DNA from: an uncultured Fibrobacteraceae bacterium | GTDB lineage: Bacteria > Krumholzibacteriota > Krumholzibacteriia > LZORAL124-64-63 | NCBI GenBank assembly: GCA_964607825.1 | Contig: CAZSNA010000004.1 | Location: 14,160 to 78,159, forward strand | Length of the DNA stretch: 64,000 bases | Reading direction: 5' to 3' | Shown: one piece after another, positions 2 to 45,014 of the stretch | Position numbering within the stretch: the first letter of the stretch is position 1 | Layout: the number at the start of each line of letters is the position of its first letter | Position numbers and translations under genes: made by a program | The notes under the pieces: generated by a model | Told to the model about the DNA's origin: nothing | What the model saw: the letters and a program-made list of their open reading frames with translations, nothing else | The model's database searches: none

Positions 2-1675
2 GGCATCTGGCTGATGCCCATCAACCCGTCGCCGACGGTCCACGGCTACGACGCCGTGGACTACTACGCCGTCAATCCCGACTACGGCACCCTGGCCGAC
101 TTCCAGACCTTCCTGGCCGAGGCGCACGCCCGCGGCATCAAGGTGATCATCGACCTGGTCCTGAACCACTGCTCCAACCAGCATCCGTGGTTCACGGCCT
201 CGGCGCTCGAGGATCCCCAGTACCGCGACTGGTTCCGCTGGTCGGCGAGCGATCCCGGCGAGACGGGCCCCTGGGGCCAGGACGTGTGGCACTGGGGCGC
301 TTCGGGCTGGTACTACGGCCTGTTCTGGGGCGGCATGCCGGACCTGAACTACGAGACGCCCGCGGTGAAGGCCGAGATGTTCGACGTCGCCGCCTACTGG
401 CTCGACACCGTGGGCGTGGACGGCTTCCGTCTCGACGCCGTGCTCTACATCCACGAGCAGCCGGGCCAGCTCATGAACACCCCGGAGACCTTCCAGTTCT
501 GGCAGGACTACACCAGCCACGTCAAATCCGTGGAGCCCGACGCCTTCTCGGTGGGGGAGGCCTGGACGGCCTCGAGCACGGTGGTGCAGTACGTGGAGCA
601 GGACCGGCTGGACGTCTGCTTCGAGTTCGACCTGGCCTACGCCATGCTGGCCGCCGTCAACGGCGCCGACGCGGTCTACCTGGCGAGCAAGGCGAGCCAG
701 GTCTACAACCTGTATCCCTACCTGCAGTACGCGACCTTCCTCACCAACCACGATCAGAACCGCTCCTTCAGCTGGCTCGGCCAGGACGTCGGCAAGGCCA
801 AGGCGGCCGCGGCCCTCTACCTGCTGCAGCCCGGCGTGCCCTTCCTCTACTACGGCGAGGAGATCGGCATGACCGGCGAGGGGCCCCACGAGTACGTGCG
901 CACGCCCATGCAGTGGGACGGCGGCCCCAACGCCGGTTTCACCACGGGCACGCCCTGGTTCCCGGTCAACGACGACTACGTCGTCCGCAACGTGGCCGAC
1001 CTGGACGTCGATCCCAACACGCTGCTGAACTGGTACCGCAAGCTGATCCACACGCGCAACGGCTCGTCCGCCCTGCGCCGCGGCGAGTACATCCCGCTGA
1101 CGAGCTCGAAGGCGCCGGTCATGGCCTTCCTGCGCGACGACGGCGACCAGCTCGTGCTCTGCCTGGTCAACACCTCGGCCTTCGCCCAGGGCGGGATCAC
1201 GCTCACGGGGACCGCGGCGAGCCTGACGCCGGGCGTGATGGAGGTCGTCGATCTGCTCGACTCCTCGGACGTGCGCACGCTGGTCGTGACCGGGGACCAC
1301 GAGATCGAGTCCCTGGGTATGGCCGCCTTCGAGGCGCGCGCGTACGAGGTCACGGCGGCCACGGGTGCGGAACCGGATCCGGGCGCGCCGCCGCGCTCGG
1401 GCCTTCGGTTGGAGCCGGCCCGGCCGAACCCCTTCAATCCCTCGACGACAATCCGCTACGACCTGCCCGAGGCCGCGCACGTGCGGCTGGCCGTCTTCGA
1501 CCTCGCGGGTCGCGAGGTGGCGGTGCTGCGGGACGGGGTGCAGGCGGCCGGATCGCACGCCGCCCGCTGGGACGGCCTGGATGCGGCGGGTCGGTCCGTG
1601 GGGGCCGGCACCTACCTGCTTCGATTGTCGACGGGCGCGGACGAACGCCTGGCGAAGATCTCGCTCGTGAAATAG
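2..1675 (+). CDS. GH13 alpha-amylase family protein with C-terminal FlgD-Ig/T9SS-like sorting domain; 5'-truncated by the window edge
   Basis: Frame is open from base 2 (GIWLMP...). GH13 motifs HGYD, DLVLNH, GFRLDA, GEAW, NHD, YYGEEIG. C-terminal PNPFNPSTTIRYDLP...WDG...GTYLLRL. Confidence 0.9.
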   Translation, partial: GIWLMPINPSPTVHGYDAVDYYAVNPDYGTLADFQTFLAEAHARGIKVIIDLVLNHCSNQHPWFTASALEDPQYRDWFRWSASDPGETGPWGQDVWHWGASGWYYGLFWGGMPDLNYETPAVKAEMFDVAAYWLDTVGVDGFRLDAVLYIHEQPGQLMNTPETFQFWQDYTSHVKSVEPDAFSVGEAWTASSTVVQYVEQDRLDVCFEFDLAYAMLAAVNGADAVYLASKASQVYNLYPYLQYATFLTNHDQNRSFSWLGQDVGKAKAAAALYLLQPGVPFLYYGEEIGMTGEGPHEYVRTPMQWDGGPNAGFTTGTPWFPVNDDYVVRNVADLDVDPNTLLNWYRKLIHTRNGSSALRRGEYIPLTSSKAPVMAFLRDDGDQLVLCLVNTSAFAQGGITLTGTAASLTPGVMEVVDLLDSSDVRTLVVTGDHEIESLGMAAFEARAYEVTAATGAEPDPGAPPRSGLRLEPARPNPFNPSTTIRYDLPEAAHVRLAVFDLAGREVAVLRDGVQAAGSHAARWDGLDAAGRSVGAGTYLLRLSTGADERLAKISLVK

Positions 1676-1810
1676 TCGTCGACCACCTTGACGGCGACGA
1701 CGCCATCGGCGTGCCGGTCAATTTCCATCTGGAGCAGCGGAAGCTCATCAGGAATCCGTACGACATGCACAATGATCCGGTCCCCGAGCCGTAGGCCGCG
1801 GCAGGTCCAG

Positions 1811-1844
1811 AAAAGAGAGGAGCCCGGCCGTGTGACCGGGCTCC
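1811..1844 (-). terminator. Intrinsic terminator of the leftward redox operon
   Basis: GGAGCCCGG (1819-1827) / CCGGGCTCC (1836-1844) stem, followed on the minus strand by TCTCTTTT. Confidence 0.7.
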
Positions 1845-1864
1845 CTGCGTGCGGTACTCGAACT

Positions 1865-2263
1865 TCAGCCCAGCAGCTCCGCGATCTTCCCCAGATACGC
1901 ATCCCGGTCGATCGGCTTGCTGAAGAAGCCGTCCGGCGGCGGCACCTGGGGCCGGGTGCTGATGAAGTGCTCGAAGGGCAGGGAGTCGCCGCCCTTGCCG
2001 GTGACCGCGGTCACCACCACCACGGGCACCGACTTCAGCGCGTCGTCGCCTCGCAGGTTGCGGTAGCAGCGGATGCCCGACTCCTCGGGCATGGTGATGT
2101 CCAGGCTGATCAGGTCCGGCTTCTCCGTCTGGGCCAGCTCGAAGCCCTCGCGGCCGTTGCTCGCCGTGACGGTCTCGTAGCCGGCGTCCTTCAGGACCAT
2201 CTCCAGGTAGGTGCGGACGTCGGGCTCGTCGTCCACCACCAGGATCTTCTTGGCGTCGCTCAT
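1865..2263 (-). CDS. Single-domain response regulator (DVU0259/DivK-like receiver)
   Basis: MSDAKKILVVDDE...LISLDITMP...FSKP; AAAGGAG RBS upstream of the ATG at 2263. Confidence 0.85.
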   Translation of the reverse strand: MSDAKKILVVDDEPDVRTYLEMVLKDAGYETVTASNGREGFELAQTEKPDLISLDITMPEESGIRCYRNLRGDDALKSVPVVVVTAVTGKGGDSLPFEHFISTRPQVPPPDGFFSKPIDRDAYLGKIAELLG

Positions 2264-2307
2264 CTCGAAACTCCTTTCAGGCGCGCGGGGGGCGCACTCG
2301 GGCACAT

Positions 2308-2838
2308 CTAGTCTTCTTCCTGCGCCCTGCGCAGGATCTCCAGCGCCTTGCGCATGGCCTCGGGGCTGGCGCCGTGGAGGCTGTCCTCCAGCTCGCCGCG
2401 CAGCTCCACCTTCTCGGTCGCGCCGTCGTCCACGGGCAGGCCGAGGGCGCGGCGGATGCTCTCCACGTAGCTCTTGGGGTTGACCGGCTTCTCCAGGTAG
2501 GTGCCGGGGCCGCTGATCATGCGGCTGTCCAGCAGGTCCTGCAGCTCGTCGCGGCCCATCTCGTCGCCGGCGTGGGCCGTGACGATCAGCACGGGGATGC
2601 GGGCCAGGTCCTTGTCGCGGCGCAGCTCGTAGAGGAGCTTGTGGCCGGACATGCCGGGCATGATCAGGTCGAGGGAGATGAAGTCCGGCGGGTCGGCGCG
2701 GACCATCTCCAGGGCCTCGCGGCCGTCGCCGGCCTCCTGCACCCTGAAGCCCGCGTCCTGCAGGATCATCGCCAGGTACTGGCGGACGTCGGGTTCGTCG
2801 TCGACGACCAGCACGGTCTTGTCGTGGGCCTGGTCCAT
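2308..2838 (-). CDS. Response regulator receiver protein
   Basis: VLVVDDEPDV...ISLDLIMP...LEKP receiver motifs with a short C-terminal tail. Confidence 0.85.
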   Translation of the reverse strand: MDQAHDKTVLVVDDEPDVRQYLAMILQDAGFRVQEAGDGREALEMVRADPPDFISLDLIMPGMSGHKLLYELRRDKDLARIPVLIVTAHAGDEMGRDELQDLLDSRMISGPGTYLEKPVNPKSYVESIRRALGLPVDDGATEKVELRGELEDSLHGASPEAMRKALEILRRAQEED

Positions 2839-2839
2839 G

Positions 2840-4663
2840 TCAGTCCTCCGGAGGGGCGTCGCCGGGGGCGTCCGCCTCCTCGTCCAGTTGCGGGAGCCGG
2901 TCCCGCGGGAATTCGAGCCTGAAGACCGAGCCTTCGCCGGCCGTCGACTCGAAGGACACCTTGCCGCCGTGCTGCTGCACGATCTTGCGCGTGGTCAGCA
3001 GGCCGAGGCCGGTGCCCTTGTCGGCTCCCTTGGTGGAGAAGAAGGTCGTGAAGACCTTCTTGCGGATCTCGTAGTCGATGCCCGAGCCGTTGTCGGCCAC
3101 CTCGATCACCAGCGTGCCGTCCCGCTCGCAGGTGCGCACGACCACCTCGCGCTCGGCGCGGTCGCACATCTCGCAGGCGTCGAGGGCGTTGGACACGAGG
3201 TTGTCCAGACAGGACTGGATCCCCTCCTTGTCCATCAGCGCGTAGGCCACGGGGTCCTCCAGGTCTGCGCGCAGGGCGATGTCGGCCATGGCCGCCTTGT
3301 CGCGGAACAGCTCGACGACCTGTCGGCAGAGGCGGTTGGGGTCCACGAGCTGCACCTCGGGCTTGCGGCCCTTGGCGAACTCGAGGAACTCGCGCACGAA
3401 GGTGGAGATGCGGTTGATGTTCTCCTCGAGCATCTGCCAGCCCTTGAGCATGCGCTCGTCGTCGCCCTTGGCCATGCCCGACTGGAAGGCGTACATGCCG
3501 CCGTCCAGGCCCATCAGCACGTTCTTGATGCCGTGGGCCAGGCCCGCCACGGTCTGCCCGACGGCCGCCAGCCGCTCGGCCGTGAGCTTCTCGCGCTCGA
3601 GCTCCTTGACCTCGCGGCGGTCCTGCGCGATGACGGCGCTGCCGATCAGGGCCTCGTTCTGGTAGAGGTTCAGCGCGGCCAGCCGCACCGGCACCGTCTC
3701 GCCCTGCAGGTTGGTGATGTTGGTGTTCTCGAGCAGGACCTGCTCGGGGCTGCTGCAGCTCCGCAGCGCCTTGGGCAGGATCCCGGCCGGCACCTTCTTG
3801 CCGATCAGCTCCTTGCGGGGGGCGCCCCAGAGCAGCTCGGCGGCCGGGTTCATGAGCACCACGCGCTGGTCCTCGTCGGTGACCACGATGGCGTCGAGGG
3901 CGTGCGCCACCAGGGCGCGGCGGAAGGCGCCGGCCTGGATGAGCTCGGCCTCCATCTGGGTGGAGGCGGTCACGTCCAGGCACATCTCGATCACGTGGGT
4001 GATCTCGCCGTCGCCCATCAGCAGGGGCGCGGTGGAGACCACGTAGTGGGTGTCGCGCCCGTCGCGGCTGGTGCCCACGTGGCGGGAGGTGTAGGACTGG
4101 CCGTCGGCGAAGGTCTTGGCCGCCGGGCATTCCTCGCATTCGGTCTGGCGGCGCTTGAAGAGCTTGTAGCAGAACTCGCCGCGGGGCTCGCCGAAGGTGC
4201 GCCGGAACATCTCGTTGGCCTTGACCACGCGGCGGTCGCGGTTGAGCACCGTCACGTAGCAGGGGACCTTCTCGAAGAGGGTCTGATACTCGCGCTGCAG
4301 GCGCTTGGTGGTGGTCAGGTCGGTGGTGATGGCCGCCAGGTGCGTGGGCTCGCCGCCCTCGTCGCCCAGGGGTGTGAGCTGGGCCAGGTAGTGGACGGTC
4401 TGGCCGTGCAGGTCGAAGCCGCTCTCCTCCAGCACGCGCTGACGGCCGTCGGCGAAGGTCGTGCGCGCGGGACAGTCGGGGCATTCGCTGTCGCGACCCT
4501 TGTAGACCTCGTAGCAGAAGCGGTCCTGGCTCGGTCCGAACACGTCGCCGAAGGCCCGGTTGTGCCGGACGATGCGCAGGTCGCGGTCCAGGACGACCAC
4601 GCCGTGGGGGATCTCCTCCAGGAGCGCGTCTCCGTGCAGTTGCTGCCAGGCGGGGGCGGTCAC
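2840..4663 (-). CDS. Cytoplasmic multi-PAS sensor histidine kinase
   Basis: GTG start overlaps the upstream stop. Three PAS repeats, two with CY..x..CxxCP. H-box LAHGIKN, N-box NLVSNALDA, DNGSG, GTGLGL. Confidence 0.9.
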   Translation of the reverse strand: MTAPAWQQLHGDALLEEIPHGVVVLDRDLRIVRHNRAFGDVFGPSQDRFCYEVYKGRDSECPDCPARTTFADGRQRVLEESGFDLHGQTVHYLAQLTPLGDEGGEPTHLAAITTDLTTTKRLQREYQTLFEKVPCYVTVLNRDRRVVKANEMFRRTFGEPRGEFCYKLFKRRQTECEECPAAKTFADGQSYTSRHVGTSRDGRDTHYVVSTAPLLMGDGEITHVIEMCLDVTASTQMEAELIQAGAFRRALVAHALDAIVVTDEDQRVVLMNPAAELLWGAPRKELIGKKVPAGILPKALRSCSSPEQVLLENTNITNLQGETVPVRLAALNLYQNEALIGSAVIAQDRREVKELEREKLTAERLAAVGQTVAGLAHGIKNVLMGLDGGMYAFQSGMAKGDDERMLKGWQMLEENINRISTFVREFLEFAKGRKPEVQLVDPNRLCRQVVELFRDKAAMADIALRADLEDPVAYALMDKEGIQSCLDNLVSNALDACEMCDRAEREVVVRTCERDGTLVIEVADNGSGIDYEIRKKVFTTFFSTKGADKGTGLGLLTTRKIVQQHGGKVSFESTAGEGSVFRLEFPRDRLPQLDEEADAPGDAPPED

Positions 4664-14126: not shown

Positions 14127-14166
14127 CGAGACGCGCGCCGCCGCGTCGGGTCGGAGGGACAGACGC

Positions 14167-35956: not shown

Positions 35957-37357
<1,401 letters not shown>

Positions 37358-37696
37358 ACCTGTGGGCCTGTCGGTGGCAGGCGCTGCAGAGGGTGATGAG
37401 ATTCCCGGGCGCTTTGGATCCGCCGGCCGACCGTGGTATCACGTGATGCACTTCCAGGAACCGAGTGTTGCGGCAGCCCTCGCTGCGGCAGCGGAAGCTG
37501 TCCCTGATCATGACTTCACGGCGTATGGACGGCGGAATCGTATGCCGGCTGCGATCCCCTGGGACAACGATGTTGGCATCGCATTCAACCGCCGCCAACT
37601 CGGGTCCGGACACAGTCAGCCGATCTCCGGGCCCCACGACAACCGCTTTTTCGCAGTCCGGGCATTTCATGATCACTATTTGATACCGGCTTTCAG

Positions 37697-37714
37697 AGTG
37701 TACACGTGTAGACT
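37697..37714. repeat. Near-palindromic 18-bp repeat, copy 1 (inside the HNH gene)
   Basis: AGTGTACACGTGTAGACT, identical to 38400-38417. Confidence 0.85.
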
Positions 37715-38399
37715 TTTGTGTTCCGAGACTGTCCAGCGCCCTCAATATCAAATCCTCCCGACTTCCCTGATGTCCGCGTTTCCGCAATGCTTCAAGGATA
37801 TTCTCCAGGCGAGCTGCATCGATGGGCCGTAATTGCAGGTTCACGCGAACAGGCCGAGATGACTCCTCTGGCTGCGGCGTCCCAGGCAAGAGGGACGGTT
37901 GAATACTCACTTCTCGCCTTCGCGCCTTCGCTCGCGCCACGTCTTTCTGCAGGCGCCGAACAGACGTCTGACGAGCCCGACCAACCCAGGCCTTCTCGGT
38001 TCGACTGTCCGCGATTCCAGCAACGGTGCGGGCCTTCGTCCAAGTGACCGATCCGTCTGTAACCGCCGCCTTCAGAACGGGCAGACGCTCGAGATCCTCG
38101 ACCAAGCGAAGGAACTGGTAAGTCTTGCTGCGCGAAAAACCCAGCGCCCGCTCGGCATAGAGGTGGATCGTGGCGTACCCGAGTTCGAGATAGAGGCGAC
38201 GGCGCGCGACCTCGCCGAACCAGAGGACCGCGCTGCGCTCGGCATGGAGCAGGTTCTCGAGAGCCTGTTTCAGGGCGACATGAACCTTGCCTGCGGACAG
38301 ACCGGGGCGGAATCCTGTCATGTGTTATCCGTGCTTTCCGGGAGGAAGCTAGAGCGTGTATGAAGGAAGTGTGCCGACCGTATCGAGACGCGTTCTCAA

Positions 38400-38495: not shown

Positions 38496-40541
38496 TCAGC
38501 TCTTCACCGTCTCCCTCTCGCTCGCATCCGCCGTCTTCCCCTGCCGGATCTCCTCCAGATTATGCATCGCATCCGGATTCCCGGGATCCGTCACCAGCAG
38601 ATCCTCCAGCACCTCTCCGGCCTCCTCGACCTTCCTCATGCGCCAGAGCACCACCGCCAGGTTGTTGGCGGCGCGCACGTCGTCGCTGTTCCACCACAGG
38701 ACGTAGCGGAAGAGGGTCTCGGCGTCCTCGAGGCGGCCGGCGTGGAAGAACGCCTCGCCCTCGCGCAGGCGGGCCTCCAGTTCGGCGGGGGCGGGTTCGA
38801 TGGGGGTGACGTCCGCGGCGCGCGGCAGCGGGCTGAAGTGCAGCACGGGGTTGAAGCCGTTGACCACGATGCTCTCCAGGTCGAAGTGTCCGGCGTAGGT
38901 GATGTCGGCGGGGATGCCCCACTTGGCCTTGAACACCTCCCAGTTGGTCTCCAGGGCGTCGCGGTAGTCGGTCTGGACGGCGGCGAAGCTGCGGCCGCCG
39001 GCGTGGTGCACGTAGCAGTCGGCGGCGATCATGGTCTGGTAGCCCGCCAGGAAGGTGCGCAGGCAGTAGTCGGTGTCCTCGAAGGTGCCCAGGCCGTAGC
39101 GCTCGTCGAAGCCGCCGATGCGGCCGAGCAGCTCCCGCTTGATCAGCATGCAGAAGCCGCTGACCCACAGGGCGGGCTCGTCCTGGCCGGCCAGGGCGTC
39201 GCCGTGCATCTGCGCGAACAGGTCCAGGTTCTTCAGGGACTCGGTGTCGTAGCCGACCTTGGGCAGCTTCTGGGCGCCGGCCACGCTGTTGCTGACCGGG
39301 CCCACTACGCCCGCCTGGGGGTGGGCCTCGGCGCAGGCGATCAGGCGGTCGAGCCAGCCCTCGGTGACGACGGTGTCCGGGTTCAGCAGCACCAGGTGGT
39401 CGCCGCAGGCGCGGGCCAGGCCCATGTTGAGGCCCGCCGACACGCCCAGGTTCTCCTGGTTGTAGATCGCGCTCAGGCGGCCCTCGGCCTCGGCGAGGTC
39501 CTCCAGCCAGGTGACGGTGCCGTCGTTGCTGGCGTTGTCCACCACCACGATCTCGTGGTGAGGATCGGTGTGGGTCAGCACCGAGTCGAGACAGCGCTTC
39601 GTGTGGTCCAGGGCGTTGTGGGTCAGGATGATGATCGAGGCCCGCGACGGGTCGCCCGGCTTGTCGGGGGCGCGGCCCCAGCGCAGGCGGGGCGGCGCGT
39701 AGGCGCGGATCGAGAAGTCGGGGGCGGGGGTGGCCTCGCCGTGGAGGTCGATGTAGTAGTCCGGGTGGGCCTTGTCGCGCCAGCGCGCGTCGAAGCGGGA
39801 CAGGTCCTCCGGCGTCGGCTGCGTCTCGTCGCAACGATAGGTCGCCGTGCTCTCGGGACGGTAGACCGATCGCCAGCCGGCCGCGGCCAGCTTCAGGCAG
39901 AGGTCCGCGTCGGCCATGACGCCCTCGTAGACCTCGTCGAAACCGACCACCTCGAAGAAGGCCCGGCTGCGCACCAGCAGGCCCGCGCCGTCCAGGGCGC
40001 GCATGATCTGGGGCGTGTTGGCGGCGAAGGCGTCGCCCGGCTTGCCGCGCCACAGGGGGTTGGGCTCCAGGACGGGGCCGGCGCTCGTGTCGCGCTGGGT
40101 CAATGCGACGCCGGCGTGGCGAATGGTGCCGTCGACGGCGAGGTGACGGCCGCCCGCGGCGCCCGCCCAGGGGTCGTCGTCCAGCACGTGCAGCAGCGGG
40201 GAGAGCCAGCCGTCGCCGACGATCAGGCCGGGCTTCAGGAAGCACAGGTAGCGACCCTGCGCCGCGGCCGCGCCCTGGTTGCAGGCGCGGGCCCAGTTCA
40301 GGGGGCCGTCCGCGCGCTTCAGGACGATCCGCTTCTCCGCGGCCTGCGTCTGCAGGTCGGCGGTGACGGCGTCGTCGGCGCCCGAGTCCACGACGATGAT
40401 CTCGTGGGCGTCGCCCGGCGTGCGGTCGGCGAGCGCGTCCAGGCAGGCGCGGAGATGCTCGGCGCCGTCGTCGACGGGCAGGATGATGGAAACCCGGGGC
40501 TCGGGCTTCGGATAGGCTTCATCGTGGCGGATGCCGCTCAT
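38496..40541 (-). CDS. Tandem GT2 glycosyltransferase with C-terminal TPR
   Basis: Two SII(I/L)..IVVD GT2 domains (the second with DNASNDGT, LLNPD, GFDERYGLGTFEDTD; the first degenerate), plus TPR (AANNLAVV). GGAGG RBS. Confidence 0.85.
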   Translation of the reverse strand: MSGIRHDEAYPKPEPRVSIILPVDDGAEHLRACLDALADRTPGDAHEIIVVDSGADDAVTADLQTQAAEKRIVLKRADGPLNWARACNQGAAAAQGRYLCFLKPGLIVGDGWLSPLLHVLDDDPWAGAAGGRHLAVDGTIRHAGVALTQRDTSAGPVLEPNPLWRGKPGDAFAANTPQIMRALDGAGLLVRSRAFFEVVGFDEVYEGVMADADLCLKLAAAGWRSVYRPESTATYRCDETQPTPEDLSRFDARWRDKAHPDYYIDLHGEATPAPDFSIRAYAPPRLRWGRAPDKPGDPSRASIIILTHNALDHTKRCLDSVLTHTDPHHEIVVVDNASNDGTVTWLEDLAEAEGRLSAIYNQENLGVSAGLNMGLARACGDHLVLLNPDTVVTEGWLDRLIACAEAHPQAGVVGPVSNSVAGAQKLPKVGYDTESLKNLDLFAQMHGDALAGQDEPALWVSGFCMLIKRELLGRIGGFDERYGLGTFEDTDYCLRTFLAGYQTMIAADCYVHHAGGRSFAAVQTDYRDALETNWEVFKAKWGIPADITYAGHFDLESIVVNGFNPVLHFSPLPRAADVTPIEPAPAELEARLREGEAFFHAGRLEDAETLFRYVLWWNSDDVRAANNLAVVLWRMRKVEEAGEVLEDLLVTDPGNPDAMHNLEEIRQGKTADASERETVKS

Positions 40542-40587
40542 GGGATTCCTCCAGGGGGGATCGGGATTCCGTGTCCCGATCCGAACT

Positions 40588-40603
40588 GCAAGATCGCGGC
40601 CAA
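40588..40603 (-). promoter_or_regulatory. sigma54 promoter of the glycosyltransferase gene
   Basis: Minus strand TTGGCCGCGATCTTGC (GG-N10-GC, TTGC) 47 bp upstream of the ATG. TGTCCGG/CCGGACA IR at 40677-40711. Confidence 0.65.
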
Positions 40604-40848
40604 GATCCGCTCTTGGGGTGGCGTTGCAACCGGCTGTGCCACTGGAGGTTAAGGCCCCTGCGCTCTGTGCGGTCCGTGTCCGGCCCCGTACCCCTGCGTG
40701 AAAACCGGACATCCTGTGGCCACGATCCGGCCACGCCCCCCCGTGGTTTTTGCGCAGGCCCCCCGAATTCCGTAATCTCATCCAGCCCGTTGCGGCGCCC
40801 GGGTGTGGGCGCCGCGCCAAGCCACTCGCAGGTTCAAGGGAGCAGGTC

Positions 40849-41190
40849 ATGTCCATCCACGAAAACAGGTTCCGGACGATCCTCGGGATCTTCCTGGCCA
40901 TCGCGCTGCTGGCGGCGCCGATGCAGGCGTACGCCTTCCTGGACATCTGGGACCCCGACGATCAGGACCAGATGGAGCCCGGCGATCCCGAAGGCGGAGA
41001 TCGCGCCTTCCCCGACACCCCCTACGACGATCCGAGCGGCCAGTCGAGCTTCGCGCCCGGCGGCGACTCCGGAGACGATGAGCTGCCCGACCAGCCCGTC
41101 ATCCGGATGATCCCCTTGCTGCGCGACCACTGGCTGATCGTGACGCCGTTGATGAAGCCCGGCGTCTCGCCGTACCTGCTCGTTCGCTGA
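40849..41190 (+). CDS. Small secreted acidic peptide precursor (113 aa)
   Basis: AGGGAG RBS, Sec signal ending AYA, Asp/Pro/Gly-rich core (PGDPEGGD), hydrophobic tail; 11 bp upstream of the next gene. Confidence 0.7.
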   Translation: MSIHENRFRTILGIFLAIALLAAPMQAYAFLDIWDPDDQDQMEPGDPEGGDRAFPDTPYDDPSGQSSFAPGGDSGDDELPDQPVIRMIPLLRDHWLIVTPLMKPGVSPYLLVR

Positions 41191-41201
41191 GGAGAGGGAA
41201 G

Positions 41202-43670
41202 ATGGGGGAGTACCTGAATCCCGATATCGGATCCCACGTCCGCGCGACGGACGCCGTGGATCCCGACCTGCTCGACCTCGCCCGGGTCCGCTACCGGCAC
41301 GAGGACTTCGAGGGCGCGCTGGAGACCTGCCGGCACGCCCTCGGAGAGGACGGCGACCGGCCGGCGCCGAACGGCGACGGGCTCTGCCCGCTGCGCCGCG
41401 ACGCCGTGCTGATCGCCGCCTGGTGCTACTACGATCTGCGCCGCTTCGTCGATTGCCGGGCCTGGCTGTTCAAGGCCCGCGACAAGGGCTGGATCGCGGA
41501 CCTGGACGTGGAGGCCGCCGCCGTCGAGTTGTGGATGCACAACTGCGAGGGCCGCTACGAGGCGACCGTCGACGAGGTGGGACATCTGCTGGAACGGGCC
41601 GAGCCGCCCCTGGACCTGGTCGATCGCGGCTGGCTGTTCTACACCCGAGGCGCCGCCCTGCGTCATCTCGGCGACATGGCCGCCTCCCTGGACGACCTGA
41701 TGACCGCGCGCACCCTCTTCCGCCTGGTCGGCCGGCGCGATCTGCGGGCCGAGGTGGGCAACCTCGTGGGGTTGGTGCGCTTCCGCCTGCGCCGCTTCGA
41801 GGAGGCCGAGGAGCTGTTCCAGGACGCCCTGGAGGTGAACCGCTCTCTCGGTCTGACTCGACGCGTCGCCGACAACCGGCAGAACCTGGGCCTGACCTTC
41901 TACAAGACGGGTCGCTACGACGAGGCCCGCCGCCACTTCACCGCGGCCATGGGCATCCGCAACCTCTCGAACGACCGCATCTGCCGCGCGCGTATCGCCC
42001 TGGGCAAGCTGGACGTGCTGCAGCGCCGCTTCGACGACGCCCGCAGCAACCTGATGGCGGCCTACACCCTGGCCGTCGACAACCACCTGCCCCGCGAGGA
42101 ATGTCTCGCCCTGGAGTTCCTGGGCGACGTGTTCCGTCACGAGGGCCGGCCCGCCGAGGCCCGGCGCTACTACGGTCGCGGCATGGTCATCGCGCGCAAG
42201 ATCGCGCCCGAGGGCGACCTGGTGCTCGAGCTGCAGCGCCGCGAGGGCGAGTGCCTGATCGCCCTGGAGAAGTACACGCAGGCCGAGGCGGTGCTCGGAC
42301 AGGCCCGCCAGCTGGCCCGCAAGCTCCACGACCCCTTCGAACTGGGCGTGGTGGAGCGCTGCCGGGCGCAGCTGGCGATCCGGCAGGGCCGGCGTCTCGA
42401 CGCGTTGACCGACACCGAGAGCGCGGTGTCCCTGCTGTCCGGCATCCGGGCCGATCACGAGCTGGCCCTGGCGCACCTGGCGGCGGCCGGACTCTACGTC
42501 GACGCCGCCTCGGACCTGCCGTTGGCCGTGGAGATCCTCGATCGAGACGCCTCCACCCGGGCCTCCGATCCCGAGGCGCCCGTGGGCCAGGTCATGGTCA
42601 CCCGCGCCCGGCGCCACGCCGTGGCCGCCGAGTTCCTCTTCCAGCGCGTGGACGAGCCCTACTGGGAGCGTCGCGTGGACGAGATGCTGGCGGTCATCGA
42701 TCGTCTGGGCCGCCGCGAAGACGGACGGCCCGGCCGCCTCACCGCCGGCGACGCCGACACCATGGTGGCCGAGTCGCCGGCCATGCGGCGCCTGCTGGCC
42801 CGCGTCGACACCTATGCCGGCTACGCCGATCCCGTGCTGGTGACCGGAGAGACCGGCACCGGCAAGGAGCTCGTCTGCCGGCGTCTGCACGATTCCAGTC
42901 CGCGCGTCGTCGCACCCTTCGTGCCGGTCAACTGCGCGGCCATTCCCGGCGACCTCTTCGAGCGGGAGTTCTTCGGACACGCCCGCGGCGCCTTCACCGG
43001 CGCCGACGCCGAGTCCCCGGGCTACGTGGCCCAGGCCGAGGGCGGCACCCTCTTCCTGGACGAGATCGGCGACCTGCCCCTGCCCCTGCAGGCCAAGCTG
43101 CTGCGCCTGATCGAGTACGGGGAGTACCGCCGTCTGGGCGATCCGCGCGAGCGCTTCGCCGACGTGCGCGTCGTCGCCGCCACCAACGCCCATCTGGCCG
43201 AGCTGGTGGAGGAGGGGCGCTTCCGCAAGGACCTCTACTACCGCCTGCGCATGCTCACCCTCGAGGTGGCGCCCCTGCGCGAGCGTCGCGAGGACGTCCG
43301 TCCCCTGCTGGACCATTTCCTCTCCCGCATGTCCGGCCGTCCGACCGAGGCCGCGGACGTGTTCCTGACCGCCGAGCTGGAGCGCATCGAGCGGTCCCGT
43401 CTCGACGGCAACGCCCGCGAGCTGATGCAGATCGCGCGCAAGGGACTGCTGCACCACTCCACCCACATGACACCGGCGGCCCCGGAGACGCCGCGCCCAT
43501 CCGCCGACGATCCTCCTGCGCGTCCGACCATCCCCGGGCGCCGGGGCCGCCCCCAGGCCGAGGAGCTCCAGCGACTGCTGGCCGATTGCGGCGGCAACAA
43601 GACCGCCCTGGCCGAGAAGCTGTCGGTGTCCCGTTCCACGCTGTATCGCTGGTTCTCTTCGATCAACTGA
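41202..43670 (+). CDS. TPR-domain sigma54-dependent enhancer-binding protein
   Basis: ~500-aa helical TPR region (NLVG..F....[19 protein letters not shown]), [37 protein letters not shown]-terminal HTH; no receiver domain. Confidence 0.92.
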
Positions 43671-43672
43671 CC

Positions 43673-43752
43673 GTCCCGCAGGACTGTCCCATCGTCCCAT
43701 CGCCGCACGGCGATGGGACGTTTGGGACGGGGGTATGGGACAGTGCGGGACA
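43673..43752. promoter_or_regulatory. Nested inverted-repeat array of GTCCC/GGGAC half-sites (putative UAS)
   Basis: GTCCCGCA/TGCGGGAC, ACTGTCCCAT/ATGGGACAGT and CGTCCCATCGCCG/CGGCGATGGGACG. Confidence 0.7.
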
Positions 43753-43829
43753 GTCGGGTCAGGGTGTTGTATCCGTGTAACTCGATGTATTCAGGCCAGA
43801 TAGTCTAAATCGGCATATTTTCCTGGAAA

Positions 43830-43846
43830 CTGGCCCCGTTCCTGCA
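43830..43846 (+). promoter_or_regulatory. sigma54 promoter
   Basis: CTGGCCCCGTTCCTGCA: GG at 43832-33 and GC at 43844-45 (N10), preceded by an AT-rich spacer. Confidence 0.65.
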
Positions 43847-43856
43847 ACAGGGGAAG

Positions 43857-43938
43857 TAGACAGGACACTTCCCCCTTTCGTGTTCTGCGAGTGCAGGTAA
43901 GACGATCCGGCAGGTGGGGCTGCCGGATCGTCGCTTTT
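43857..43938 (+). ncRNA. Candidate ~80-nt sigma54-dependent sRNA with an anti-SD-like loop
   Basis: Stem CAGGACAC/GTGTTCTG with loop TTCCCCCTTTC. 13-bp terminator stem GACGATCCGGCAG/CTGCCGGATCGTC plus GCTTTT. No plausible ORF. Confidence 0.6.
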
Positions 43939-43940
43939 CG

Positions 43941-44999
43941 TCAGGGTGTCTCGCCGCCGTCCGCCTGATTCCGCAGGTACACATCCCGCTTCGGATACGG
44001 AATCTCCACCCCCGCCTCCACCAGCGTCCCATAAACCCGCTCCGTCAGCGCGTCGATCACCCGCCCGCGGTACACCGGCTCGCTCACCCAGGCCAGCAGC
44101 TCGAACTTCAGCCCCGACTCGCCCAGCAGCCGGAAGCGCACCCGCGGCGCCGGCTCGGCGATCAGGTGGGCGACCCCGTCGCAGCAGCCGAGCAGCAGGG
44201 CGCGCACCTGGTCCACGTCGCTGCCGTAGGCCACCGACACCGGCACCCGCACGCGCATCTTGTCGTAGGGGCCGCCGGTCTCGTTGATGATCTTGGCGTT
44301 GCCGATGATGGCGTTGGGGACGGTGACTTCCACGTCGTCGCGGGTCAGGATGCGCGAGGAGCGCAGGCCGATCTCGGTGACCTGCCCGCGGGTCACGTCG
44401 TCGATCACGATGAAGTCGCCGATCTTGAAGGGCGCGTCCGCCAGGATGAACACGCCGGCGAAGAGGTTGGCCAGGGTGTCCTTGGCCGCGAAGCCCACCG
44501 CGATGCCGGCCACGCCCGCCGAGGCCAGCCAGGTGGTCACCTCGATCCGCCAGGCCGAGAGCAGGAAGTAGAAGGCGGCGCCGTAGACCAGGATCTTCCA
44601 CAGCATGATCATCAGCGGCAGGGTCTTGGTCTGCACCACGCCGGTCTCGCCGCCCCTGCGGCTGGCGGCCTTCAGCAGCAGGGTGCCGATGCCCACCAGC
44701 ACCACCGACCACACCACGATGCCCACGGTCTTCAGCACGCCCACCAGCGCGAAGTGGGCCGCCGCGGTCTGGATCCACAGCAGCGACCAGGCCGCGCCCG
44801 CCAGCCACACGGTCAGGATGACCGGGCCGCGCAGGCGGTTGACGACCTCGTCGTCCAGATCGGTGGCGCTGCGGCGGCTCAGGCGCACCAGCAGGGGGAA
44901 CACCGCCAGCCGGATCAGCAGCACCGCCACCAGGGTGATCGCCAGGCGCATGAGGGTGGCGATGATCCGCGTGTCCAGGTTGTCGAACCACTCGGGCAT
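43941..44999 (-). CDS. mscS: Small-conductance mechanosensitive channel family protein
   Basis: AGVAGIAVGFAAKDTLANLFAG, PFKIGD, IGLRS, VPN, EIPYP. Confidence 0.9.
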   Translation of the reverse strand: MPEWFDNLDTRIIATLMRLAITLVAVLLIRLAVFPLLVRLSRRSATDLDDEVVNRLRGPVILTVWLAGAAWSLLWIQTAAAHFALVGVLKTVGIVVWSVVLVGIGTLLLKAASRRGGETGVVQTKTLPLMIMLWKILVYGAAFYFLLSAWRIEVTTWLASAGVAGIAVGFAAKDTLANLFAGVFILADAPFKIGDFIVIDDVTRGQVTEIGLRSSRILTRDDVEVTVPNAIIGNAKIINETGGPYDKMRVRVPVSVAYGSDVDQVRALLLGCCDGVAHLIAEPAPRVRFRLLGESGLKFELLAWVSEPVYRGRVIDALTERVYGTLVEAGVEIPYPKRDVYLRNQADGGETP

Positions 45000-45014
45000 G
45001 GTCTCCTCCTCGGG

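Follow-up and report, generated by a model that had tools for sequence, protein, structure and literature searches.

The stretch of DNA analysed here, called the window throughout, is 64,000 nucleotides (nt) long, has a G+C fraction of 0.693 and comprises positions 14160–78159 of contig C4 of an uncultured bacterium of the phylum Krumholzibacteriota, the genome of which is 3.67 Mb, 96.9% complete and 69.6% G+C. Between positions 40849 and 43938 the window holds a compact set of genes and sites that appears to join an unusual sensory input to a small RNA (sRNA). The first gene (40849–41190, + strand) encodes a protein of 113 residues with an export signal, hereafter the partner. After a gap of 11 nt between the open reading frames (ORFs) follows the gene of an 822-residue sigma-54 activator (41202–43670, + strand), and beyond it lie an array of nested repeats (43669–43755), an A+T-rich spacer (43756–43830), a sigma-54 (-24/-12) promoter (43831–43846, + strand) and an ORF-less unit predicted to specify an sRNA of about 82 nt (43857–43938, + strand). 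An earlier note on this DNA had described these same parts: a 113-residue ORF with a signal and a GDPEGGD core 11 bp before an 822-residue activator; an activator with tetratricopeptide repeats (TPRs) as its only sensory region, GAFTGA, Walker A/B and helix-turn-helix (HTH) motifs and no receiver; and a GTCCC/GGGAC array, an AT-rich spacer, a -24/-12 promoter and an ORF-less unit of about 80 nt closed by a + strand terminator. All were found where the note had placed them, with Pfam and the translation in agreement about the activator. For comparison we used 91 genomes of the bacterial family, six of the genus (the window's own, G000, and five relatives, G001–G005) and 85 others, and 208 genomes of the phylum; activator loci carry L-numbers.

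The activator has the features expected of bacterial enhancer-binding proteins (bEBPs). Pfam places TPR families at residues ~145–403, Sigma54_activat (PF00158) at 522–687 (E 5.3e-62) and HTH_8 at 787–816, and finds no receiver domain. The AAA+ domain contains Walker A/B motifs, GAFTGA can be read directly in the translation, the C-terminal HTH is of the Fis type, and the genome encodes sigma-54 (rpoN; Sigma54_DBD at 213 bits, contig C15). A presumably cognate -24/-12 promoter with upstream repeats ~100–200 bp away, another hallmark of the class, is also present. NCBIfam models match the AAA+/HTH part only, all below their equivalog cut-offs. Orthologues in the genus are 72–76% identical to the activator.

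What sets the activator apart is its sensor, a TPR solenoid formed by about residues 20–506. An AlphaFold2 model of residues 1–510 is a confident solenoid of 25 helices, with a mean predicted local distance difference test score (pLDDT) of 92 and a predicted template modelling score of 0.87. The best Foldseek matches of the sensor are the TPR domains of O-GlcNAc transferase (OGT) and LGN/Pins (E 1e-9 to 1e-8, template modelling score up to 0.74 on the target), and no receptor of the RRNPP group was among the matches listed, which extended to rank 50. When a sensor profile was compared with the sequences of the PDB, designed consensus TPRs, Pins/LGN and kinesin light chains came out on top, with RapF (E 3.7e-12) and AfsR (1.9e-8) further down; matches at the Rap/AfsR level are generic TPR likeness. 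The best-conserved stretch of the sensor is ~298–349, where R298, L302, E305, G308, A335, P336, D339, E343 and R347 are invariant in 36–37 sequences, making this segment a candidate ligand or relay site. The sensor is tied to its output, as 86 of 89 proteins related to residues 100–500 also have a sigma-54 domain; the database names of those relatives are generic ('sigma 54-interacting transcriptional regulator', 'NtrC family response regulator/TPR repeat protein').

The array directly 3' of the activator gene, found by repeat search and by its conservation in the genus, is a putative upstream activating sequence built of nested direct and inverted repeats of GTCCCA(TCG)/(CGA)TGGGAC, and sits at about -188 to -102 from the predicted transcription start. 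It is the only cluster of at least four GTCCCA/TGGGAC hexamers within 120 nt in the 3.67 Mb genome, and it accounts for 6 of the 16 GTCCCA-N(6-59)-TGGGAC pairs found genome-wide, a uniqueness which suggests a regulator with one main target. The A+T-rich spacer that follows has a G+C fraction of 0.453, as against 0.693 for the window. Its sequence is not conserved; its composition is low in G+C (0.34–0.47) in five of the six genus genomes and 0.62 in G002. It is a possible bending or IHF-type region. The promoter, TGGCCCCGTTCCTGCA, has its GG at 43832–43833 and its GC at 43844–43845, and TGGC-N7-(C/T)TGC(A/G) occurs in 6/6 genomes of the genus, always 13 nt away from the RNA's first conserved base. 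No sigma-70-like site was found in 40000–45000. Array, promoter and RNA are conserved jointly in all six genomes. In G001, G002 and G005 they follow the activator's stop codon as in the window, and in G003 a contig break intervenes. In G004 the three lie ~1.56 kb from the activator gene with their internal spacing kept. The idea that the array is a mere terminator of the activator gene was dropped, as in G004 it stays with the promoter.

The RNA itself was delimited by conservation, folding and a terminator scan. Its first conserved base lies 13 nt past the C of the -12 GC in all six genomes, and from this fixed distance the start is placed at 43857 ± 1. Stem-loop 1 has an 8-bp stem (43861–43868 with 43880–43887) and an 11-nt C-rich loop, UUCCCCCUUUC, at 43869–43879; a 13-nt single-stranded linker joins it to a terminator hairpin with a 13-bp stem (43901–43913 with 43920–43932) followed by GCTTTT. 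The predicted minimum free energy is -37.7 kcal/mol (z -3.48), and none of 200 shuffled sequences was as stable. In BLAST searches the RNA was full-length and single-copy in each of the six genus genomes, while the other 85 family genomes yielded just terminator fragments of 21–29 nt, in three of them. A covariance model (R2) gave 107–110 bits (E about 1e-24) for the six genus copies and no more than 26.7 bits for anything else in the 91 genomes; the six weak R2 matches that were inspected proved to be apparent coding sequence or bare hairpins and were rejected as copies. Mean column identity of the RNA in the six genomes is 93%, compared with 72–76% for the activator protein in the same genomes. 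Conservation takes in the array, the TGGC-N7-YTGC element and the RNA body, whereas the spacer and the 3' flank after the terminator have diverged. In the six-sequence alignment all 21 base pairs are kept (126/126 pair cells standard), a figure that falls to 32–48% when the pairing partner is slid by 1–3 columns. Eighteen pairs are invariant and three, in the terminator, vary (GU/GC/AU, GC/AU/GU and AU/UG); since the G-U and U-G states pair in a + strand transcript only, these changes lend strand-specific support.

An Rfam search of 40000–45000 at E<=10 returned four chance-level matches, none of them within 43800–43950. The unit is intergenic, lacks an ORF and has its own sigma-54 promoter and an intrinsic terminator, as sRNA genes of this class do. 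Judged from sequence, it is most likely a new genus-specific sigma-54-dependent RNA of the Pxr/CrcZ/Qrr kind with a complete promoter architecture. Its invariant part includes, at 43880–43900, a 6-codon frame (GTG TTC TGC GAG TGC AGG TAA) with no ribosome-binding site, which is probably meaningless. A role as a CsrA sponge was considered and dropped: CsrA is present (contig C1), but the RNA has a single GGA, and that lies inside a stem. Hfq was not found in the genome (96.9% complete), so that sRNAs here, if they act, do so without Hfq. At another activator locus, L012, in the stretch about 265–400 nt past the activator stop, a strong -24/-12 match, TGGCACCCGTATTGCA, is followed by ~110 nt that include the C-rich CTTTTCCCC and a hairpin rich in G+C. 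A 27-codon ORF is all that comes next before a convergent gene, and the locus may thus have an sRNA of its own, distinct from the window's, controlled by a paralogous cassette.

We turn to the partner, which was recognised in the ORF list and by its conservation 5' of the activator. Its N-terminus is a hydrophobic, signal-peptide-like helix (about residues 3–29) ending in AYA. Then comes the motif PGDPEGGDR, read in the translation, which holds the invariant G45-D46-P47, then an acidic, Gly-rich, disordered middle region and a C-terminal beta-hairpin. The AlphaFold2 model (mean pLDDT 71.7) consists of a helix at 3–22, a long low-confidence stretch and strands at 86–91 and 94–98, and the protein is predicted to be mostly disordered. 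The ORF is kept 5' of the activator in 5/5 genus loci that reach that 5' end, with PGDPEGG(D/N)R invariant and the C-terminus conserved. A profile search of 1.84 billion representative proteins gave 335 protein clusters that pass E<=1e-3, of which 48 also pass E<=1e-10; the family members listed, 150 in number, have 81–176 residues, mostly 100–130. In an alignment of 136 partner sequences, no column other than G45, D46 and P47 is invariant, and the consensus reads EGDPxDGND..GGGGG....D. Asp-Pro bonds are self-cleavage sites in some exported proteins, and the invariant GDP may be a processing site; the segment after it we take to resemble a calcium-binding loop. Neither the Pfam nor the NCBIfam library, both of which were searched, has an entry for the family, and the protein Atlas gave no usable match. 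A -24/-12 promoter was looked for 5' of the window's small ORF and was not found. Our search of the open-access literature turned up neither a description of sigma-54 activators fused to TPRs or of the small-protein family, nor any publication that deals with sigma-54 control or regulatory RNAs in Krumholzibacteriota. The small GDP protein family is uncharacterised and the sensory cassette undescribed.

The pairing of partner and activator reaches well beyond the genus. Scoring loci with enough upstream sequence for a same-strand upstream ORF whose product has a hydrophobic segment at its N-terminus and contains G[DE]P, we found that most TPR-activator loci have such an ORF of 100–130 residues just 5' (41/53, versus 2/20 loci matched through the AAA+ domain only and 4/3000 random genome positions). 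This bears out the earlier note's expectation that homologous activators would have an adjacent peptide gene. A hidden Markov model (HMM) built from 37 partner ORFs had 43 matches in the loci, 7 of them outside the seed set, and 43/43 were on the activator's strand and ended at the activator's start. When 32,692 six-frame ORFs of the genome were searched with the same HMM, the only significant matches were the seed on C4 and an ORF on contig C110 (E 2.8e-6), and the latter directly precedes the genome's only other TPR activator. Of 37 cassettes, 27 have partner and activator genes that overlap or abut, in 9 cases by 4 nt and in 8 cases by 11 nt, counts which depend on the start codons chosen. 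Across the phylum the partner family occurs in 63/208 genomes at 1–3 copies per genome: in the activators' bacterial family (f1) in 60/90 genomes plus the window's own, in a second family (f6) in 2/10, and in all others in 0/107. Mean column identity is 14–17% for the partners, 45% for full-length activators and 39% for the TPR parts of the activators. From this near-exclusive, overlapping pairing we argue for the partner, whole or as a fragment, as the probable TPR ligand. The cassette is, as far as sequences can tell, the larger finding, and one more general than a single sequence could reveal. Co-folding of the TPR domain (1–510, 37-row alignment) with the mature partner (30–113) gave a score of 0.00 without controls and was used neither way.

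The second cassette, on contig C110, consists of a partner at about 205–687 with GEGDPDGGDTSP and a TPR activator at 681–3122. A -24/-12-like sequence, TGGATCGGTCATTGCA, lies about 60 nt 5' of the start of that partner. Past the activator, a low-G+C stretch at about 3290–3500 encodes a 70-residue signal-peptide ORF with tandem GDPGGGDTTP, GDPSGGDTSP and GDPGGGDT units, and this ORF is followed by a gene for an exported protein of 1576 residues.

Taken together, we read the locus as a self-contained sigma-54 module in which the activator acts through the array and promoter on the sRNA, with the partner or a fragment of it as the TPR input, and put the probability of this reading at roughly 0.6. 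The comparison of sequences establishes the parts, how they are conserved and how they are linked; DNA binding, activation, RNA function and the identity of the ligand we infer, as follows. The behaviour of bEBPs is established, and for that reason the activator would be expected to bind the array and activate the -24/-12 promoter: its Fis-type HTH would bind the GTCCCA/TGGGAC repeats ~100–190 bp 5' of the promoter, and its AAA+ domain would then remodel sigma-54 RNA polymerase. The output would be the Rho-independently terminated sRNA of ~82 nt, which would present its C-rich loop on the invariant 8-bp stem and most likely pair in trans, without Hfq, with G-rich Shine-Dalgarno regions. Activity of the activator would be set through the TPR solenoid, its sole sensory part. 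The cognate input would be the GDP protein of the upstream gene or a fragment of it, lying as an extended ligand in the TPR groove. We lean towards a fragment that had been outside the cytoplasm, with re-import and export failure both considered.

Several observations weigh against this module. The -24/-12 pattern by itself is not rare, with 7 occurrences in the window versus 3.8 expected and 8/100 shuffles reaching 7; as it is not significant alone, the case rests on the comparative evidence. The binding of the HTH to the GTCCCA repeats is deduced from position only. The RNA is confined to one genus, so that its covariation comes from six closely related sequences with three variable pairs and is modest: 15/500 shuffles reach the observed score. 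A search for sites able to pair with the loop was unspecific in a genome of 70% G+C (143 G-rich sites, 45 of them before an ORF of at least 60 residues), and duplex energies computed genome-wide, with 23,215 windows of -14 kcal/mol or lower, singled out no target. The 12 public sequencing runs that contain window positions 40800–44100, all from seawater or marine metagenomes of four studies, are DNA, and none is RNA on record. On the input side, 12/53 TPR-activator loci have no partner ORF by the criteria used; the invariant GDP stands in contrast to the mature peptides of known peptide-signalling systems, which are variable; and there is a problem of topology, in that the partner bears an export signal while its receptor is cytoplasmic. 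A pattern scan of metagenomes returned two contigs, which are near-copies of the G002 and G005 loci and add no diversity.

The alternatives differ mainly in what the partner does. One possibility, which we hold tentatively and at well below even odds, is cell-cell signalling of the RRNPP type: the secreted partner would be cut to a peptide carrying or ending in GDP, re-imported by an oligopeptide permease and bound by the TPRs, giving quorum-type control of the sRNA. In its favour, the signal-peptide-like N-terminus is conserved family-wide, and the 1–3 divergent cassettes per genome, with identity among partners far below that among activators, resemble pherotype diversification. The segment from the signal peptide to GDP is variable and leads up to an invariant site; the C110 ORF with three tandem GDPxGGDT units looks like a multi-copy peptide precursor; the sensor fold resembles peptide-binding solenoids; and the genome has one Opp/Dpp-type binding protein (SBP_bac_5). 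That last point loses its force, however, since such a protein is near-universal (11/14 control genomes). The listed Foldseek matches held no RRNPP receptor, and Rap came well behind consensus TPRs, Pins/LGN and kinesin light chain in the profile comparison. Further, partners of 100–130 residues with a conserved C-terminal hairpin speak against such signalling, neither a protease nor a transporter was seen in the cassette, the cassettes of sister genera drive the stress gene clpB, and the peptide would have to cross two membranes twice, the phylum being presumably diderm. The fuller chain, in which a secreted, lineage-specific peptide, possibly cut at Asp-Pro, acts through the TPR-sigma-54 activator on an Hfq-independent sRNA, with 1–3 private channels per genome in a non-Firmicute, is rather doubtful.

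The clpB linkage gives rise to a stress-sensing alternative, that the cassette monitors export or proteostasis: a disordered precursor that fails to be exported would be captured by the cytoplasmic TPR and would trigger a stress output, clpB in sister genera and the sRNA here. Outside the genus, L009 (45% identity) and L010 (42%) are the closest cassettes, and in both of them a -24/-12 promoter directly 3' precedes clpB; in L011 clpB is one gene further on. The window genome's own clpB (contig C2, start 59943) has no adjoining activator gene but retains a promoter that matches, CGGCACGCCCCCTGCA, located 75 nt 5' of the ATG (motif at about 59870). This bacterial family appears to have its clpB under sigma-54 control, with -24/-12 motifs 70–75 nt before the ATG in three genomes; in two sister genera these motifs lie directly 3' of a cassette. 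One sensor type would thus serve a stress gene in some genera and an sRNA in this one. Overlapping or abutting genes would fit coupled synthesis of bait and sensor, and a partner predicted to be disordered with a hydrophobic hairpin also speaks for the monitor. Even so, we consider an export monitor unlikely. It leaves the several cassettes per genome, the invariant GDP and the tandem-repeat ORF unexplained. The orthology of the activator to the clpB-linked activators is not established, and the enhancer motifs of the clpB-linked loci differ from the GTCCCA array. The known secretion monitors SecM, VemP and MifM act in cis through translation arrest and control Sec/YidC components. The case here seems different; the gene downstream of the partner encodes a transcription activator and no secretion component, and the invariant motif is near residue 46 and not at the stop codon.

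It is quite improbable that the small protein is no input at all, being merely a co-expressed exported product or a structural factor while the TPRs sense a chaperone, another protein or a metabolite. Linkage alone does not prove binding, TPR solenoids bind many kinds of partner, and the TPR-activator loci in which no partner was detected would be accounted for. Against this, the partner occurs essentially only beside these activators, in 43/43 locus matches and in 2/2 significant genome matches; the two genes overlap or abut in most cassettes; and the partner is nearly confined to the bacterial family of the activators. Very improbable, finally, is that there is no independent sRNA and the conserved block is a DNA-level element, such as a protein site or a bidirectional terminator serving the activator gene and the mscS-like gene, beside a fortuitous -24/-12 match: the commonness of the promoter pattern, the place of the hairpin, just where the convergent MscS-family gene (43941–44999) has its 3' end, and the DNA-only origin of the runs containing the sequence would fit, but conservation spans 45 nt 5' of the hairpin, from a fixed 13 nt after the -12 in 6/6 genomes, the G-U/U-G substitutions keep pairing on the + strand only, the T-run is on the + strand only, the unit persists with a different downstream gene (G004, G001) and with the activator gene 1.56 kb off, and the array keeps a constant distance to the promoter and not to the activator's stop codon.

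The self-contained sigma-54 module can be set beside known systems, and here two analogies drawn in the earlier note survive in part. By analogy, the closest parallel to the output would be nla19 with pxr, followed by cbrB with crcZ and LuxO with Qrr. In Myxococcus xanthus, according to PMC5568312, the nla19 activator gene is followed by a 262-nt intergenic region with an enhancer site and a sigma-54 promoter and then by the gene of a 108-nt sRNA. The window shares with it the activator gene, the enhancer and sigma-54 promoter, an sRNA of ~100 nt with several stem-loops, and a lineage-conserved order of these parts. Nla19 is described in the same paper as a response regulator, unlike the TPR solenoid with a small exported partner found here; the RNA sequences are unrelated, with no Rfam match, and the phylum is different. 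In Pseudomonas, crcZ likewise lies 3' of the activator gene cbrB as a separate transcription unit (PMC8871633). The input of CbrA/CbrB is a two-component kinase, in contrast to that of the window's activator, and CrcZ, itself transcribed from a sigma-54 promoter, sequesters Hfq/Crc, whereas here Hfq was not found and there is a single C-rich loop in the RNA. The Vibrio LuxO/Qrr system is similar in having a sigma-54 activator dedicated to a short terminated sRNA. LuxO, however, acts through a phosphorylated receiver domain, and there is no receiver here. Qrr sRNAs are Hfq-dependent and multi-copy, unlike the single-copy RNA of a genome in which Hfq was not found. The note's Qrr-like output thus holds for the layout of activator, array, promoter and sRNA, for its conservation in 6/6 genus genomes and for the strand-specific pair changes, but not as Qrr homology, as there is no Rfam match. 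The accompanying expectation of a downstream promoter and terminated unit in homologous activators holds within the genus (6/6); outside it, the other 85 family genomes yielded no credible copy of the sRNA, and the closest cassettes drive clpB.

For the input, the note had proposed an RRNPP-like system. What remains of this is an adjacent ORF with an export signal and a TPR solenoid; a specific relationship to RRNPP receptors was not found in the fold and profile comparisons, and the partner is 100–130 residues long. Like the Rap, NprR, PlcR and PrgX systems of Firmicutes, the window has a predicted cytoplasmic TPR sensor beside a small ORF that bears a signal peptide, in an arrangement of which a genome can have several divergent copies. 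Unlike them, it has an AAA+ sigma-54 activator with a Fis-type HTH as output, not an XRE-type HTH or a phosphatase; its partner has the invariant GDP and is larger than typical RRNPP precursors, which have about 40–60 residues; its sensor showed no specific affinity to theirs in the fold and sequence comparisons; and its phylum is not Firmicutes. As an analogy, then, the input is RRNPP-like in layout only. LGN/Pins and OGT, the sensor's best structural matches, are solenoids that bind extended peptides in a concave groove. They are eukaryotic scaffolds without a transcriptional role, and the likeness is one of fold class, not of shared function.

Among the neighbouring genes, a divergent glycosyltransferase gene (38496–40541, - strand) encodes two GT2 domains and C-terminal TPRs. 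It has a -24/-12 promoter of its own, TGGCCGCGATCTTGCA (40587–40602, - strand), about 45 nt before the likely start (MSGIRHDE...), and the motif TGGCC(G/A)CG(A/T)TCTTGCA recurs in 5/5 genus loci; with the sRNA promoter on its other side, the activator gene is flanked by two sigma-54 promoters. At about 40720–40800, five genus loci share a conserved block ...GGTGGCCA(C/T)GA(T/A)CTGGAC..., with a second GGACA/GGGCA about 22 nt 5', and a further conserved block (A/T)TTCCGTA..(C/G)TCA. Candidate roles for these blocks are an enhancer of the divergent promoter or the cassette's own promoter. The convergent MscS-family gene adjoins the sRNA terminator, and a 346-residue ORF at 37281–38321 (- strand) ends in an HNH-nuclease-like motif.

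The locus offers a complete and testable unit of activator, enhancer, promoter and sRNA from an uncultured phylum, and its invariant GDP motif and compact promoter unit would make a simple orthogonal switch for synthetic biology. Sigma-54 activators are usually controlled by receiver, GAF, PAS or V4R domains or by partner proteins. A TPR solenoid to which a small exported protein is dedicated, in a nearly exclusive pairing and with at least 335 protein clusters, would be a new sensory input for these activators. Should the partner be a signal, one more phylum would join those with peptide communication of the Gram-positive kind; should it instead be a sentinel of export stress, the cassette would represent a new mode of proteostasis sensing, linked to clpB.

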